The notes below the pieces were generated by a model. The model saw only the letters and a list, made by a program, of their open reading frames with translations, had not been told where the DNA came from and ran no database searches. From NCBI GenBank assembly GCA_965223265.1, contig OZ244999.1:7360001-7424000 (forward strand): a stretch of DNA of 64,000 bases, read 5' to 3'. Positions 38,535-49,515 of this stretch are shown one piece after another. The position numbers and the translations under genes were made by a program. The number at the start of each line of letters is the position of its first letter. Position 1 is the first letter of the stretch. This DNA comes from Planctomycetota bacterium (GTDB taxonomy: Bacteria > Planctomycetota > UBA8108 > SXIK01).

Positions 38535-39530
38535 TCAGCCTCCAATCTGCGACATGGAGCGCGATGCTCGCACGAATTCGGGAGAGTTGATCTGGTGCCC
38601 CGGCTCCTTGTCCCAAACCGCGCGGCGCAAGACCTCGGCGATTTGCTTGTCAGTCGCGTCGCTCCGCACGAGACTGACAAGATCCGTCTCCTTGACCGAA
38701 AAAAGGCACGTTCGCAGTTTCCCGTCCGCGGTGAGTCGAATGCGGTTGCATTGTTCGCAGAACGGCTCGGTCACCGAGTTGATGAAACCGACTTTTCCAC
38801 CCACGCCATCGCCAAACACGTAGTCCCGTGCTGGAGCCGTCGACGACTGCGCTGGATCGGGGCGAAGAGGGTATGCGGCGTGAATGCGTTCTCGGATCTC
38901 CTTGCCGCTCATCATGACGTCTCGGCTCCAGGCGTTTTGCGCATCAAGCGGCATGAACTCGATGAAACGCACCTCGAACGAACGATTCCGCGCGAGCTCC
39001 GCGAAACGCAGAAGTTCATGATCGTTGACTGAGCGTAGGATCACCGCATTCACCTTGATCGGCCCCTCAAACCAACGCGCTGCGGCATCGAGCCCGCGGA
39101 GGACTTGCTCGAGTCCATCTCTCTTGGCCAGGCGCATGAAATTCTGACGAAGCAGCGAGTCAAGACTGACATTGATTCGCTTGAGGCCGGCAGCCGAGAG
39201 CTTCTCCGCACTTTGCTCGAGGAGTAGGCCGTTCGTTGTCAGCGAGATGTCGTCGACTCCATCGAGGCGCTCAAGGAGCGCGACCAGTCGATGAAGATCA
39301 CGCCGCAGAAGTGGTTCCCCACCGGTCAGCCGAATCCGGCGCACACCGAGTCCAGCGGCGATGCGTACAAGGCGGACGATCTCCTCGAACGTCAGCAGAC
39401 TGTCGCGCGGCAGCCACTCGAGCCCCTCTTCGGGCATGCAGTAGGTGCAGCGGAAGTTGCAACGATCCGTGACGGAGATCCGCAGGTTGTCGATCACCCG
39501 TCCATGTCGGTCTTGCAGCATTGGACTCAA
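38535..39530 (-). CDS. moaA: GTP 3',8-cyclase MoaA
   Basis: LRISVTDRCNFRCTYCM, LTGGEP, FCEQCNRIRLTADGKLRTCL and C-terminal MSQIGG. Confidence 0.97.
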   Translation of the reverse strand: MSPMLQDRHGRVIDNLRISVTDRCNFRCTYCMPEEGLEWLPRDSLLTFEEIVRLVRIAAGLGVRRIRLTGGEPLLRRDLHRLVALLERLDGVDDISLTTNGLLLEQSAEKLSAAGLKRINVSLDSLLRQNFMRLAKRDGLEQVLRGLDAAARWFEGPIKVNAVILRSVNDHELLRFAELARNRSFEVRFIEFMPLDAQNAWSRDVMMSGKEIRERIHAAYPLRPDPAQSSTAPARDYVFGDGVGGKVGFINSVTEPFCEQCNRIRLTADGKLRTCLFSVKETDLVSLVRSDATDKQIAEVLRRAVWDKEPGHQINSPEFVRASRSMSQIGG

Positions 39531-39701
39531 CGATTCGCGTTATCGGTTCGCCGTTGACCGCCGGGCGCACCGGCGGCTGAGATTTCAAGCGCTGGGGCGC
39601 CTGTCCCAGCGAGGCCCGTCATTGTAGCACGACCGGGCGGCGAACAGCGACAGGGGGAGAGGCTGGGCACGGGTGACATCCTATGTGCGAGCTGCTACTA
39701 T

Positions 39702-39718
39702 TGTGCAGTCAGTGCACA
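39702..39718. promoter_or_regulatory. Dyad TGTGCA-N5-TGCACA, candidate autoregulatory enhancer box
   Basis: Perfect 6-bp inverted repeat about 50 bp before the probable start of the enhancer-binding protein; related box at 42016-42032. Confidence 0.5.
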
Positions 39719-39766
39719 CATCCGCGGCAGTCGCCGCGACGCTCTTCTCCAAGCGAGAACCCTCTC

Positions 39767-41908
39767 GTGACTCCAAAAGGTACACCGGTCAACGAGGCCG
39801 CCGCGAACAACCCGCCCGAGATCCAGCTCGATAGCCGTTTGGCGATTCTGCAGGACATCAGCCTCGCCCTCAACTCGACGCTCGACCCCGACAAGCTGAC
39901 GGAGGTCATCTTGGACTCGTGCATTCGCTACACGGGGGCGACGACAGGCTCTCTCATTCTCACCGATGACAGCGACCTCCTGCGCATCGTCGCGGCCCGT
40001 GGACTAGGGGCCGACGTCGGCGAGGAAGTGACCCTGCGCATTGGTGAAGGCATCACGGGCTGGGTCGCCAAACATGCCAAGGCGATCAACGTGCCGGACG
40101 TTCGCCAGGACCGCCGCTACGTCATGGTGAAGGAGCACATTCGCAGCGAAGTCGCGGTGCCGATGGTGCTGAACAAGCGTGTCATTGGAGTTATCAGCGT
40201 CGATAGCACGCGGCCAGAAAACTTCGCCGAGGAAGACGTCAAGCTTCTCGTCATCGTTGCGACCCAGGCAGCCCAGATCCTCGAGAATGCGCGAGCGTAT
40301 GAGGATCTGCGGCGCCGCACGCGGCAGGACGAAACCATGCTCGAAATCAGCCAAGTGCTCGGCTCGGCGCTCGATTTCGAGGAGCTCTTTCAGCAGGTGA
40401 TGGCGATCCTCTCGCGGCGCTCTGGCATGACCCGAGGCCTGCTTGTTCTCTCACAGCCGGAGTCGCGCGAGCTCGCCATCGAAGTTGCGTTCGGGCTCAC
40501 GTCCGAGGAGATCGCCAAGGGGCGCTACCAAGAAGGAGAGGGCATCATCGGTCGCGTATTTCGCACCGGAAAGCCCGTCGGCGTCAGGGACATCCGTCGC
40601 GAACCGGCTTTCCTGGGCCGCACTGGAGCCATTGTGCCGCGAGACGAGCCGCTCTCGTTTCTTGCCTGCCCTATCGTTCTCGACGGGACGCCCGCCGGCG
40701 TCTTCGGCGTCGAGAAGGTTTTCACCGGCGACGATGAGCTCAATGAAGACCTCGGATTCCTAGAGATCGTCGTGAGCACCCTCTCTCAGGCCGTCAAAAT
40801 CTACCGTGAGGTCGCCAGACAAAAAGAAAAGTTGATTCAAGAGAACGAGCTGCTGCGCGAGGAACTCGGCTGGCGCTACCAGTTCGACAACATGGTCGGC
40901 AACAGCCCGGCAATACAAAAAGTCTTCTCCTTGGTCAGCAGCGTCGCGAGGACCCGTTCGACCGTGCTCATTCTGGGCGAGAGCGGCACTGGCAAGGAGC
41001 TGATCGCCCACGCGATTCACTACAACAGCCCTCGCGCCGAGAGACCTTTCGTGCGCGTCAACTGTGCAGCAATTCCTGAAAACCTCCTCGAACCTGAACT
41101 CTTCGGGCACGTCAAAGGCGCGTTTACCGGAGCGACCGCGAACCGTAAAGGAAAGTTCGTCATGGCAGACGGTGGGACGATCTTTCTCGACGAGATCGGA
41201 GACATGAGCCCACTTCTGCAGGCCAAGATTCTGCGCGTCCTTCAGGAACGCGAAGTCGAGGTGATTGGCAGTGAAGAGACCGTCAAAGTCGACGTCCGCG
41301 TGATCGCAGCGACTCATCAAAACCTGGAAGATCTGATCGCGGCGGGTCAGTTTCGCGAGGATCTTTACTATCGCCTCAACGTCGTGCAGATCGTCCTACC
41401 TCCGCTGCGCGAGCGCCCTGAGGACATTCGACTATTGATCGAACACTTCCTCGAAAAGTTCCGCCGCGAGCATGACCTTCCCGAGCTCGAGCTCACCAGC
41501 GAGTCCATGCGCTACCTCTTGCGCCACGACTGGCCAGGGAATGTCCGTGAGCTCGAAAACGTTGTCGAGCGTGCGGCAGTCGTCAGCCAAGCGGGGCTGA
41601 TCCGCGCCGAAGATCTTCCAGAACTGTCGCGCCTCGCGGCGCGGCCGGCAGGCGGCGGCTACGCCAGCTCGCAGCCGACTTCCCTCGAGGAAGCCCTGCG
41701 AGCGTTCCTTGGCGGTCGCTTCGGCAGCCGGCCGCAGAACGGGACGGTCTGGGACGAAACCATGCGCCGGGTCGAGGGCCAGCTGCTCAAGTTCGCCCTC
41801 GAGCAATCGGGCGGAGTGCAGCTCAAGGCCGCCGACCTGCTCGGCATCCACCGCAACACGCTGCGCAAGAAGTTGACCAGCGCCAACGACGAGCCTGCCG
41901 AGCGCTAA
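39767..41908 (+). CDS. sigma54-dependent enhancer-binding protein (GAF-GAF-AAA+-Fis HTH, NifA-like)
   Basis: Two GAF repeats (GEGITGWV, GEGIIGRV), GESGTGKE, GAFTGA, IFLDEIG, FREDLYYRL, WPGNVREL, AADLLGIHRNTLRKKL; start uncertain (GTG 39767 or ATG 39683). Confidence 0.93.
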   Translation: MTPKGTPVNEAAANNPPEIQLDSRLAILQDISLALNSTLDPDKLTEVILDSCIRYTGATTGSLILTDDSDLLRIVAARGLGADVGEEVTLRIGEGITGWVAKHAKAINVPDVRQDRRYVMVKEHIRSEVAVPMVLNKRVIGVISVDSTRPENFAEEDVKLLVIVATQAAQILENARAYEDLRRRTRQDETMLEISQVLGSALDFEELFQQVMAILSRRSGMTRGLLVLSQPESRELAIEVAFGLTSEEIAKGRYQEGEGIIGRVFRTGKPVGVRDIRREPAFLGRTGAIVPRDEPLSFLACPIVLDGTPAGVFGVEKVFTGDDELNEDLGFLEIVVSTLSQAVKIYREVARQKEKLIQENELLREELGWRYQFDNMVGNSPAIQKVFSLVSSVARTRSTVLILGESGTGKELIAHAIHYNSPRAERPFVRVNCAAIPENLLEPELFGHVKGAFTGATANRKGKFVMADGGTIFLDEIGDMSPLLQAKILRVLQEREVEVIGSEETVKVDVRVIAATHQNLEDLIAAGQFREDLYYRLNVVQIVLPPLRERPEDIRLLIEHFLEKFRREHDLPELELTSESMRYLLRHDWPGNVRELENVVERAAVVSQAGLIRAEDLPELSRLAARPAGGGYASSQPTSLEEALRAFLGGRFGSRPQNGTVWDETMRRVEGQLLKFALEQSGGVQLKAADLLGIHRNTLRKKLTSANDEPAER

Positions 41909-42015
41909 CAGCCCGCTCGTGGCGCTGGCCGGCAGCGGTGGTGCGCCAAGGCGTGCGAAGACGCGTGGCCAGAAGCGATCGCTCTGCCTCTTTTTTATGC
42001 AGAGAGACCTATCCG

Positions 42016-42032
42016 AGTGCATTTTCCGCACA
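42016..42032. promoter_or_regulatory. Candidate enhancer box AGTGCA-N5-CGCACA
   Basis: 10 of 12 arm positions match the 39702 dyad; lies about 150-165 bp upstream of the predicted sigma54 start. Confidence 0.5.
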
Positions 42033-42154
42033 CTTATTGAGCGCCCACGGGCGCTCCGGCGAGAGCGTCCGTCAACTGCACCAACGTTGTAAGCCGTTGC
42101 CAGGCAATGCAGAACAGCCCTGACGAAACGTCTTCCTGGGGGCCCGGTAGCGCG

Positions 42155-42170
42155 TGGCCCCCACTTTGCT
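42155..42170 (+). promoter_or_regulatory. sigma54 -24/-12 promoter TGGCCCC-CACT-TTGCT
   Basis: TGGC...TTGCT with exact GG-N10-GC spacing; IHF-like CAA-N4-TTA on the minus strand at 42090-42099. Confidence 0.65.
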
Positions 42171-42180
42171 ATATCGAGCC

Positions 42181-42282
42181 CCAACGTCTTAGTGCAGGGA
42201 ATCGTCAGCAAGGACCCCACCAGTTTTGACGGTCCCTTTGGAAGCTCTCCCCGAACTCTGTGCGCAGGGTGCGGGGTTTTTT
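42181..42282 (+). ncRNA. Candidate sigma54-dependent small RNA (~100 nt)
   Basis: Bounded by the sigma54 promoter and a strong terminator; internal stem AGGGAATCGTCAG / TTGACGGTCCCT with loop CAAGGACCCCACCAGTT. Confidence 0.55.
42249..42282 (+). terminator. Intrinsic terminator
   Basis: CCCCGAACTCTG-TGCG-CAGGGTGCGGGG stem (one mismatch) followed by TTTTTTATT. Confidence 0.85.
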
Positions 42283-42316
42283 ATTGGATCCCGAAGGCGC
42301 TGCCGTGTTCGCAGTG

Positions 42317-42495
42317 CTGCCCGCCTGAAAAAGTCATTCGGCTGAGAAACCGGCCTCTTCACGCCCAGATCGGCCGCGGCGAGCCTCGCCGTGTATATCT
42401 TATAGAAGAGGGCTCGGAGATTACCTACGTTCGCCGCGACCGATCTGGACGCGAAGCGACCAGTTTTCAGCTCGAGCACTTTTTCGGGCGGGCTG
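42317..42495. mobile_element. Fold-back MITE-like element, copy 2 of 3
   Basis: Similar to 1877-2053 and 49338-49515; the right-flank CTAA contains the TAG stop of the convergent LysM gene. Confidence 0.85.
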
Positions 42496-43416
42496 CTAAG
42501 CCGGGAGGAGGCCGAGTCTTTGCCCAATCAGGTACATGCCGAGCATGTGAGGCAAAAGAACGGCCAGCGCCAGAATCGGAAACGCCTGCGACGACCGAAT
42601 CCCCAGCACCTGGGGATAGAAGCGCAGACTGAGCACCGAGTAGACGAGCAGAACAGCCAAAGCACTGATGAGCATGCCTGGCTTCGTTCTGACGTAGGAT
42701 TCAAAAGCAGGGAAGAGTTCGTCGCTCGCCGCCAGTGATTCCGCCGGGCTGCCCAGATAGACCATGAAGAGCGCCATGGCTCCGAGCGTCAGCAGCGTCG
42801 AAAAGGTCAACGTCTCGGTCAAAAAGACGGCTTTCACCGACTTGCGAAACGAGGTCTCTTTCACGAAGGTGAAAATCGTTGCCAGCCAGACCAGGATGCT
42901 CTGCACAAACGAGTGTGACAACAGACCGAGGAAAGCCACCAGCACGACGCGGGGAACCGGCAGCCCGAAGAGGCTCTTGGTCGTGACTTGGTGAACAACG
43001 TTGGACCAGGCGTTCGGCAGGTTACCGAACGTGTTTTCGCCACTGGCTCCCTGCTCTTCCAATGGTCGCGGCTCTGGGGGCTCCTCCGGGACGAATTTTA
43101 AGTTGCCCGGATTGAGATGCTCCGCCCGGTCCATCGTGCCCTGTTCCCAGGCGTCACGCCCGAGCGGCGGGAGGTAGATCGTCTCACCGTAATGCAGCTG
43201 ATGGCTCGACGGCAGCCATGGGTTGTGGCGCCGGATTTCGGGCCACAGCAGACCGTTGCCGTACTCGCGCTCAGCGATCGAGAACAGAGTGTCGCCGTGC
43301 TGCACTTGATAATTGCGCCCGCTCGCCCTTGCACCCACCGACGAAGGGCCTGGCTCGCAGGCAACGAGAAAGAGGGTTGAAAGGAAGCTCAAAGTGAGGA
43401 GTCGCATTTCGTTCAT
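42496..43416 (-). CDS. LysM-domain lipoprotein with C-terminal membrane domain
   Basis: Lipobox LVAC; YQVQHGDTLFSIAEREYGNGLLWPEIRRHN LysM domain; about four C-terminal hydrophobic helices. Confidence 0.8.
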   Translation of the reverse strand: MNEMRLLTLSFLSTLFLVACEPGPSSVGARASGRNYQVQHGDTLFSIAEREYGNGLLWPEIRRHNPWLPSSHQLHYGETIYLPPLGRDAWEQGTMDRAEHLNPGNLKFVPEEPPEPRPLEEQGASGENTFGNLPNAWSNVVHQVTTKSLFGLPVPRVVLVAFLGLLSHSFVQSILVWLATIFTFVKETSFRKSVKAVFLTETLTFSTLLTLGAMALFMVYLGSPAESLAASDELFPAFESYVRTKPGMLISALAVLLVYSVLSLRFYPQVLGIRSSQAFPILALAVLLPHMLGMYLIGQRLGLLPA

Positions 43417-49337: not shown

Positions 49338-49515
49338 CAGCCCGCCTGAAAAAGTCATTAGGCCGAGAAACTGGCCTCTTCACGCCCAGATCGGCCGCGG
49401 CGAGCCTCGCCGTGTATATCTTATAGAAGAGGGCTCGGAGATTACCTACGTTCGCCGCGGCCGATCTGGACGCGAAGCGATCAGTTTTCGACTCGAAGCA
49501 CTTTTCAACGGGCTG
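49338..49515. mobile_element. Fold-back MITE-like element, copy 3 of 3
   Basis: CAGCCCGCCTGAAAAAG...CTTTTCAACGGGCTG flanked by CTGA and CTAA. Confidence 0.85.

Follow-up and report, generated by a model that had tools for sequence, protein, structure and literature searches.

A predicted sigma-54-dependent small RNA gene beside the gene for a double-GAF enhancer-binding protein in an order of Planctomycetota

Background

An enhancer-binding protein gene with a neighbouring small RNA (sRNA) gene that is transcribed from a sigma-54 promoter is an arrangement already documented in Pseudomonas, myxobacteria and Desulfovibrio. We describe here a locus of the same design in a Planctomycetota bacterium (GTDB lineage Planctomycetota; UBA8108; SXIK01; assembly GCA_965223265.1). 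The window analysed is a stretch of 64,000 nt (contig OZ244999.1, positions 7,360,001 to 7,424,000, forward strand), and coordinates are those of the window unless they are given with C1. The locus includes a gene for a sigma-54 activator with two GAF domains and, beginning 272 nt after its stop codon as judged from promoter geometry, a predicted non-coding RNA of about 100 nt with a sigma-54 promoter of its own, and we hold with good confidence that the two make up a two-gene module. The RNA appears to be the product of a real and conserved sRNA gene that depends on sigma-54 and on the neighbouring activator. The literature searches made gave no description of an sRNA dependent on sigma-54 (RpoN) in planctomycetes.

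Among the closest described systems is CbrB-CrcZ of Pseudomonas and Azotobacter, in which, as here, the sRNA gene is directly downstream of the gene for the enhancer-binding protein, with an RpoN promoter and activator sites between the two genes and with read-through possible (PMC6292655). CbrB is a two-component response regulator, whereas the activator at our locus has two GAF domains and no receiver domain. CrcZ has been linked to the relief of Hfq-Crc repression in the same account (PMC6292655), and Hfq was not found in our genome.

Pxr, of Myxococcus xanthus and other myxobacteria, is also close in its layout. It is reported to lie 262 nt downstream of nla19, to have a predicted sigma-54 promoter, an enhancer site and several stem-loops, and to keep its position across genera (PMC5568312); the corresponding distance is 272 nt here, for an RNA of about 102 nt. 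Nla19 is described as a response regulator (PMC5568312). Pxr gates development, and the lineage differs from that of our genome.

The sigma-54 regulome given for Desulfovibrio vulgaris includes four non-coding RNAs (ncRNAs), among them an “ncRNA downstream of DVU0653” and an “ncRNA downstream of DVU0679”, and an ncRNA is also listed there for the single-component regulator DVU2359, which gives the pairing of one activator with one neighbouring ncRNA that we see here (PMC4641369). These are other RNAs from another phylum, and their likeness to our RNA is one of design and not of sequence comparison.

The small RNA and its promoter

The RNA came to notice as a promoter-like motif and adjoining sequence shared downstream of the activator orthologs in three other genomes (G001, G002 and G009). 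Covariance models were built, the first from six sequences (this genome, G001, G002, G009, G007 and G016) and the second from ten, and the RNA at 42181-42282 scores 81.4 bits (R1) and 63.1 bits (R2). By covariance model there is one copy of the RNA in each of 10 of the 21 genomes of the order, representing 10 of its 11 genera, and none in the 10 genomes of genus g5, in G012 or in 38 other genomes of the class. Nor was it found in 149 further genomes of the phylum, five of which are already counted in the class set. A pattern scan of metagenomes gave 28 stretches, of which two pass the model (L137 with 56.5 bits and L126 with 38.7 bits); the other 26 fail it and are taken to be chance matches. 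The 12 copies discussed below are those of the 10 genomes of the order and of these two metagenome contigs.

All 12 copies are preceded by a sigma-54 type promoter element. In every one of the 12 loci the pattern [CT]GG-N9-TGC lies 5-30 nt ahead of the point where the model match starts; the consensus is TGGCC-N6-TTTGC, and in this genome the element takes the form TGGCCCCCACTTTGC (42155-42169), which has the GG-N10-GC spacing within TGGC...TTGC that is characteristic of a sigma-54 promoter and is conserved in the homologous loci. The genome has two full-length rpoN genes, with open frames of 496 and 487 aa; their Sigma54_DBD matches score 198.8 and 191.6 bits.

The regions upstream of the 12 promoters are rich in TGTGC/GCACA half-sites. 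There are 33 in 3109 nt, with every locus represented, against 5.7 +/- 2.3 in dinucleotide shuffles of the same regions (maximum 14 in 1000), 5.8 times as many, and the bulk of them are 80-150 bp upstream of the -24 element. In this genome the predicted enhancer dyad starts 139 bp upstream of that element. Dyads of this kind are rare: the relaxed form [AT]GTGC-N7-GCAC[AT] occurs 24 times in the 9.18-Mb genome, and two of the 24 flank the activator gene. A TGG-N9-TGC is found 40-220 nt away for three of the 24, one of the other two being inside a kinase-like open reading frame (ORF). The promoter motif by itself is common, with 630 occurrences of TGG[CT]-N7-TTGC in the genome, and promoter-like sites with at least three upstream half-sites number five genome-wide, several of them in a palindromic repeat family that is unlike the activator dyads.

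The genome has two repeat families that bear on this work, one of which is described with the neighbouring genes. The second is a palindrome, GTAGCAGGCACAC...GTGTGCCTGCTAC, found for example at C1:8871492, 4206349, 1590097 and 5012524, and its 13-nt word has 252 occurrences with both strands counted. It holds GCACA and TGTGC in the reverse order to that of the activator dyads and gave the top false positives of the regulon scan.

With regard to structure, the parts of the RNA are, in order, a small 5' hairpin, a central hairpin, a linker and a terminator hairpin. The small 5' hairpin is weak in this genome and absent in G007. In the central hairpin strong conservation is seen in the 5' arm GGGAUCGUC and in the apical loop, and the 3' arm keeps pace by way of G-U pairs and compensatory changes. 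The loop displays (C/A)AGGACCCC, and its core AGGACCCC is invariant in 12 of 12 copies. The terminator hairpin with its U tract is present in 10 of the 12 homologs, the tail being short and interrupted in G002 and G003.

Pair counts over the 12 sequences indicate that the helices of both the central hairpin and the terminator covary. Of the pair cells, 89.7% are paired, compared with 39-47% when partners are slid; 10 of 22 pairs have double-sided changes; and the covariation score of 0.314, against 0.139 in shuffles, was matched by 0 of 500, although for all of these counts the comparison with shuffles is inflated by the fitting of the alignment to the model and by the kinship of the sequences.

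None of the 4227 models of Rfam 15 has a match in the window at gathering thresholds, and this counts among the differences of our RNA from CrcZ, Pxr, Qrr and GlmY. At E <= 10 the families anti-hemB and BjrC80 overlap the RNA with 13.8 bits each (gathering thresholds 49.5 and 80), the anti-hemB match being carried chiefly by the terminator.

The RNA is most unlikely to be a messenger for a small protein, a possibility that we put at the very bottom of those considered. A 146-aa ORF (42192-42632, plus strand, from a GTG at 42192) is listed mechanically and could be proposed as the product, as could some micropeptide. However this frame runs across the terminator, a multicopy repeat element and the 3' end of the convergent gene, and in other genomes the coding end of the convergent gene is just 15-95 nt past the RNA. 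There is moreover no conserved reading frame among the 12 RNAs, as indels of one or two bases shift the frame and most copies have stops in all three frames.

The initial annotation, made from the sequence alone, listed six elements for this locus, and five of them are found where it placed them: a GAF-GAF sigma-54 activator with its stop at 41908, a dyad just upstream of the activator gene, an enhancer-like dyad at 42016-42032, a -24/-12 promoter at 42155-42170 and a U-tailed terminator about 100 nt after the predicted start. Its remark that no credible plus-strand gene follows and that the next gene is convergent also holds. The checks among those it named that were run here did not go against its reading: the RNA, GG-N10-GC and terminator recur in orthologous loci, rpoN is present in the genome, and the terminator does not serve activator read-through alone; it also proposed a search of Rfam, in which no family matches the RNA. 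The sixth element, an IHF-like site at 42090-42099, is not supported: over the 100 nt that precede the promoter nothing comes closer to WATCAANNNNTTR than two mismatches, a level equalled in 17% of shuffles. In no locus of the 12 is the match convincingly better than in shuffles of that locus. An IHF site between enhancer and promoter is common at sigma-54 promoters without being obligatory, and the genome has two genes of the HU/IHF family.

Table 1. Features of the locus and related genes, in window coordinates except where C1 is given
Feature	Coordinates	Strand	Basis or detail
Predicted sRNA gene, about 102 nt	42181-42282	+	Start from promoter geometry; 3' end is the T run
Central hairpin of the RNA	42196-42237	+	5' arm GGGAAUCGUCA pairs with UGACGGUCCC in the centroid fold
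Apical loop AAGGACCCC, proposed seed	42210-42218	+	CAGGACCCC in the other 11 copies (alignments)
Intrinsic terminator	42249-42282	+	G+C-rich hairpin (42253-42279), then UUUUUU
Sigma-54 -24/-12 promoter TGGCCCCCACTTTGCT	42155-42170	+	TGGC-N7-TTGC, that is GG-N10-GC
Enhancer dyad AGTGCATTTTCCGCACA	42016-42032		Predicted upstream activating sequence of the sRNA promoter
Sigma-54 enhancer-binding protein gene	39683-41908	+	741-aa ORF; GAF-GAF-AAA+-HTH_8 (Pfam)
Sigma-70-like promoter of the activator gene	39673-39701	+	GTGACA, 17-nt spacer, TACTAT, with TG before; consensus match only
Upstream dyad TGTGCAGTCAGTGCACA (TGTGC-N7-GCACA)	39702-39718		Predicted activator binding site at the activator's own promoter
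LysM-domain membrane protein or lipoprotein gene, converging on the sRNA gene	42496-43416	-	Translation; weak LysM match
rpoN gene, about 200 kb before the window	C1:7158881-7159357	+	
rpoN gene	C1:5073831-5074307	-	

Linkage to the activator gene

In six of the loci (this genome, G001, G002, G003, G009 and L126) the RNA is downstream of the activator gene and on the same strand, the contig of G003 having just the last 33 residues of the activator, and in G005 it is about 1.65 kb downstream, again on the same strand. In G007 and G016 the two genes are convergent, the RNA being encoded on the other strand with its own promoter kept. There is no adjacent activator gene in G014, where RNA and activator are on different contigs, nor in G017 and L137, and in these three also the sigma-54 promoter is kept. 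Thus eight of the 12 loci include an activator ortholog, and in a ninth case (G005) there is one within 1.7 kb. The promoter is retained where the RNA gene has been inverted or moved, which argues that this gene is independent and more than the 3' end of the activator gene.

This bears directly on the proposal that the RNA is the 3' untranslated end of the activator mRNA, with the terminator being that of the activator gene and the -24/-12 match fortuitous. We found no terminator-like site between the activator stop at 41908 and the sRNA promoter, so read-through from the activator gene is possible, and in Azotobacter a cbrB-crcZ co-transcript is reported to be processed into functional CrcZ alongside the sigma-54 transcript (PMC6292655). 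By analogy the two routes may coexist here. However GG-N10-GC is at a fixed place in 12 of 12 loci, and the two opposite-strand loci and three loci without an adjacent activator ortholog rule out read-through of the activator mRNA as the sole origin of the RNA and its terminator, a possibility that the initial annotation had raised against itself. We regard this explanation as very improbable, and the RNA as a gene in its own right. It has its own promoter, its own terminator and no downstream gene in the unit, as one would look for in a free-standing sRNA gene.

The gene after the RNA is convergent in this genome, G001, G002, G003, G009, G005, L137, L126 and G014. The genes that flank the RNA in G014 are a DUF3450 gene on one side and, on the other, a convergent FGE-sulfatase gene. 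G017 is the sole case of a following gene on the same strand, with a glycosidase-like gene about 190 nt past the terminator.

The activator and control of its own gene

The activator has the features of a bacterial enhancer-binding protein. Pfam finds two GAF stretches, Sigma54_activat (PF00158, residues 404-570, E = 7e-73), AAA_lid_14 and HTH_8, a Fis-type HTH (residues 694-731, E = 2.2e-11); the Walker A motif GESGTGK is at residue 432 and GAFTGA at residue 479, and rpoN is in the genome. Pfam detects no receiver domain, and the protein is of the one-component type with two GAF domains.

Residues 217-722, comprising the second GAF domain, the AAA+ domain and the HTH, score 559.3 bits with the NCBIfam nifA model TIGR01817 (cut-off 528.85), the additional N-terminal GAF domain being outside this stretch. 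The best match in the genome to the nifH model TIGR01287 has 24.5 bits against a cut-off of 394.35, and nifH was not found in this assembly, which is a single contig and 91.65% complete by marker genes. Given the lack of nifH and the extra N-terminal GAF domain, we regard the protein as resembling NifA in its architecture, without taking it for a nif regulator.

Orthologs, either full-length or cut by contig ends, are present in 19 of the 20 other genomes of the order with 58-71% identity, the exception being G017. Beyond the order the best matches begin near residue 200 and so lack the first GAF domain. There is one distant homolog in a Brevinematales metagenome-assembled genome (L045) that aligns over residues 52-732 with 43% identity, which indicates that the double-GAF architecture is present outside this order too. 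A search of genome contigs with the whole activator gave 80 loci of unrelated sigma-54 activators, reflecting the generic AAA+ pattern, and no ortholog.

The longest ORF for the activator opens at the ATG at 39683, and there is an in-frame GTG at 39767 (codon 29). The GTG is more likely to be the true start, as the ATG is inside the predicted promoter and the alignments of orthologs begin at query residues 27-50. The upstream neighbours, on the opposite strand, are moaA (38535-39530) and a gene for an ECF sigma factor.

The promoter predicted for the activator gene is the sole sigma-70-type match within 39400-42700, where shuffles give a mean of 0.5. The upstream dyad, one of six perfect TGTGC-N7-GCACA dyads genome-wide, begins one base after the end of this promoter and its predicted -10 hexamer. 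TGTGC/GCACA half-sites are in excess before activator genes more generally: in the 300 nt before the gene, taking one locus for each of nine genera, there are 20 against 5.4 +/- 2.2 in shuffles (3.7 times; shuffle maximum 13 in 1000). Left out of that count were the remaining six loci of g5, the loci in which the activator is truncated (L020-L022 and L026), the distant homologs (L023-L025) and L019. The enrichment fits autoregulation, and the activator probably binds the dyad at its own promoter. As the dyad abuts the predicted -10 of the sigma-70-like promoter, its position suggests that the autoregulation is negative, that is by repression.

A dyad of a different spacing, TGTGC-N16/17-GCACA, is conserved before the activator orthologs at L008-L011, L013, L017 and L018 (all g5), and at L014, L016 and L019. 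In g5 it is embedded in TTGTGC...GCACAAT and could double as a sigma-70-type promoter.

Neighbouring genes

The gene that converges on the RNA gene (42496-43416) encodes what we predict to be a lipoprotein, of which the C-terminal half is hydrophobic and has the look of a membrane-spanning region; these membrane segments, like the signal peptide and the lipobox, were read from the sequence by eye. The LysM match is weak (Pfam E = 5e-4, NCBIfam 5.3e-05). In the ESM Atlas the protein is a “hypothetical protein”, with LysM in 24% of the members of its cluster and Planctomycetota as the commonest phylum. A homolog is beside the RNA in 9 of the 12 loci and convergent with it in eight of those, the distance from the aligned coding end to the RNA terminator being 15-95 nt in seven other loci and 214 nt here.

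This persistent neighbour makes it conceivable that the transcript acts in cis on the membrane-protein gene, by antisense pairing at the 3' end or by transcriptional collision, and we note that there is no opposite-strand T run at the terminator hairpin, such that the membrane-protein mRNA could enter the RNA gene. However the arrangement is not general: in G007 the membrane-protein gene is upstream of the RNA and on the same strand, and it was not found within the 3.1-kb loci of G014, G016 and G017. The strong terminator of the RNA restricts overlap with the other gene, neither collision nor perfect antisense pairing needs an invariant loop, and in this genome a 131-nt repeat is inserted between the two genes. 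A cis role is in our view unlikely, and action in trans is the reading that we follow below.

The repeat is seen as a long hairpin at 42340-42470, a copy of a palindromic element of about 131 nt between the terminator and the convergent gene, and its insertion accounts for the 214-nt spacer here. It has several hundred BLAST matches in the genome, with 13 other copies at least 96% identical over 128-132 nt, and further copies in the window are near 1900-2026 and 49361-49489. A match of the repeat to the microRNA-precursor family MIR5534 that the Rfam search gave at relaxed thresholds (33.8 bits against a gathering threshold of 79) is spurious.

There is a second TGGC-N7-TTGC match nearby, TGGCCGTTCTTTTGC, on the minus strand at 42552-42566 in the last codons of the membrane-protein gene, directed at the repeat and at the strand antisense to the sRNA gene. 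It is probably due to chance.

Proposed mode of action and search for targets

For the steps from signal to target, that is reception of the signal, binding of activator sites, transcription and pairing, we infer the following. The GAF domains would receive a signal, upon which the activator, bound to TGTGC/GCACA sites about 80-150 bp upstream of the -24/-12 promoter, would set off transcription through sigma-54 RNA polymerase, and the product would be a non-coding RNA of about 100 nt (42181-42282), ended by the intrinsic terminator. It would act in trans, with its C-rich loop and conserved 5' arm pairing with G-rich sites in mRNAs, and would do so without Hfq or CsrA. There may be a parallel in RsaE and RoxS of Firmicutes, in which a C-rich loop pairs with G-rich mRNA sites independently of a chaperone. 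Pairing that is independent of these chaperones is favoured because neither Hfq nor CsrA was found in the genome: there are no matches to Hfq (PF17209), which is matched in control genomes, and none to CsrA (PF02599). The RNA is for the same reason not readily placed in the class of Hfq-dependent trans-acting sRNAs, as the required hfq gene was not found.

A number of our results weigh against this proposal or against parts of it, in addition to the inflation of the structure counts noted above. A search of sequencing runs listed four that contain the stretch, all from one study, and no RNA data set among them. The folding energy of the RNA in this genome is unremarkable in comparison with shuffles (z = -0.81). 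TGGC-N7-TTGC occurs three times in the window, with 2.36 expected, so the promoter motif by itself is at chance. The half-sites have no single operator geometry, being a 13-bp TGTGC-N3-GCACA palindrome in four loci (one with a mismatch), N7 here, and N8, N9 or scattered in the others, and the enhancer dyad of this genome has only one perfect half-site (GCACA) together with AGTGC. In the 10 genomes of g5 and in G012 the activator and the dyad upstream of it are kept and no RNA was detected; a search of 10 activator loci that lack the RNA gave no sigma-54 promoter accompanied by half-sites. G017, with an assembly of 80% completeness, has the RNA and no clear activator ortholog (best match E = 2.5e-86). 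As to targets, pairing of the loop with 5' regions does not exceed that of shuffles, whether for the membrane-protein gene (8 loci) or for the activator gene (6 loci), and GGGGTCCT is not enriched before start codons (2.1%, compared with 1.1-3.5% in 25 permuted controls). One well-placed candidate target, a 339-aa ORF without a Pfam family, was rejected, as it has orthologs in 21 of 21 genomes and the motif is absent from those examined.

It is the conservation in 12 of 12 homologous loci, together with the rarity of the dyad, that lifts the locus above chance, and not the promoter motif or the fold alone. The retention of the activator without the RNA in g5 and G012 implies that the activator need not be dedicated to the RNA: in such loci there are either further targets of the activator or RNAs so diverged that the model missed them. 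The description of the locus as a self-contained module of activator and sRNA, as given initially, thus needs to be divided. The sRNA gene is borne out by the conserved loci, and the term self-contained is not, as the 10 genomes of g5 lack the RNA.

The lack of an identified mRNA target leads naturally to the suggestion that the RNA does not pair with mRNA but is a sponge or decoy for an RNA-binding protein, by way of its GGA motifs (CAGGGA and CAGGAC). The 5' arm and loop are conserved far beyond the needs of pairing, and between them they have two A(N)GGA-like motifs, of which one is placed in the apical loop. However CsrA was not found here, and of the 21 genomes of the order only two have it, both of them among the 10 that carry the RNA; Hfq was also not found in the genome, and no other candidate protein was identified. 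The RNA has two or three copies of the motif, where known sponges have many. A CsrA sponge specifically is rejected because CsrA was not found in this genome, and sponges in general we think quite unlikely, with action by pairing preferred.

Some longer complements to the RNA were noted in the genome. A 16-nt perfect complement to UCGUCAGCAAGGACCC is at C1:6699691-6699706 on the minus strand, within the part of a 551-aa ORF that encodes its hydrophobic C-terminal segment, this ORF having cadherin-like repeats, and there is a second 16-mer complement on a strand without a covering ORF; both are probably fortuitous. The number of such 16-mers expected by chance over the genome is about 0.15 (our own estimate and not the result of a tool). 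A 14-nt complement to GGGAAUCGUCAGCA at C1:1737647-1737661 on the plus strand may overlap a GTG that could be the start of an ORF of 482 aa; the encoded N-terminus (...SRRSFLRIGSLAMGG...) looks twin-arginine-like. A search for complements of the common 5' arm in G009, G007, G016 and G014 gave one to three extra matches per genome, all inside coding regions.

Comparison with known systems

With regard to its protein, the locus invites comparison with NifA, the TIGR01817 cut-off being passed by residues 217-722 and the predicted sites having the TGT...ACA dyad character. Unlike NifA systems, the activator here has an extra N-terminal GAF domain, there is no nifH, and the sole promoter found with such sites is the one that would drive the sRNA. 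The upstream activating sequence of NifA is TGT-N10-ACA. The dyads here are of 17 bp with TGT-N11-ACA, and in other genomes we have TGTGC-N3/N8/N9-GCACA, and thus the spacing is not that of NifA.

We put forward tentatively, and as rather less likely than otherwise, the suggestion that this double-GAF NifA-like protein is a dedicated sensor with two direct targets, the sRNA gene and its own gene, the sRNA being its sole output and working without Hfq or CsrA. A link to the cell envelope would then be possible, in view of the LysM-domain protein gene that so often neighbours the RNA gene. Were the suggestion to hold, the locus would be the first signal-to-sRNA pathway to be defined in Planctomycetota, and a case of a NifA-type activator re-used for purely RNA-based control through an invariant C-rich loop.

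Whatever the outcome on that point, promoter type, probable regulator, binding motif and proposed functional loop can all be named from the sequence, and this in a group that has been little charted. As the genome is one contig, genetics may be feasible, and the combination of a GAF sensor with no detectable Hfq or CsrA would make this a clean system for finding targets in a setting without the classical chaperones.

Among other sRNAs under sigma-54 control, GlmY of Enterobacteria is under the enhancer-binding protein GlrR, and the Qrr RNAs of Vibrio depend on Hfq. The Qrr RNAs are, like the RNA predicted here, transcribed by sigma-54 under an enhancer-binding protein, LuxO (PMC10162802). LuxO and GlrR are response regulators, unlike the GAF activator of our locus. 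What is new here is the RNA family, the lineage, the double-GAF NifA-like activator and the setting in a genome with no detectable Hfq or CsrA, and the locus adds one lineage to the recurrent design in which an activator gene is accompanied by an sRNA gene.

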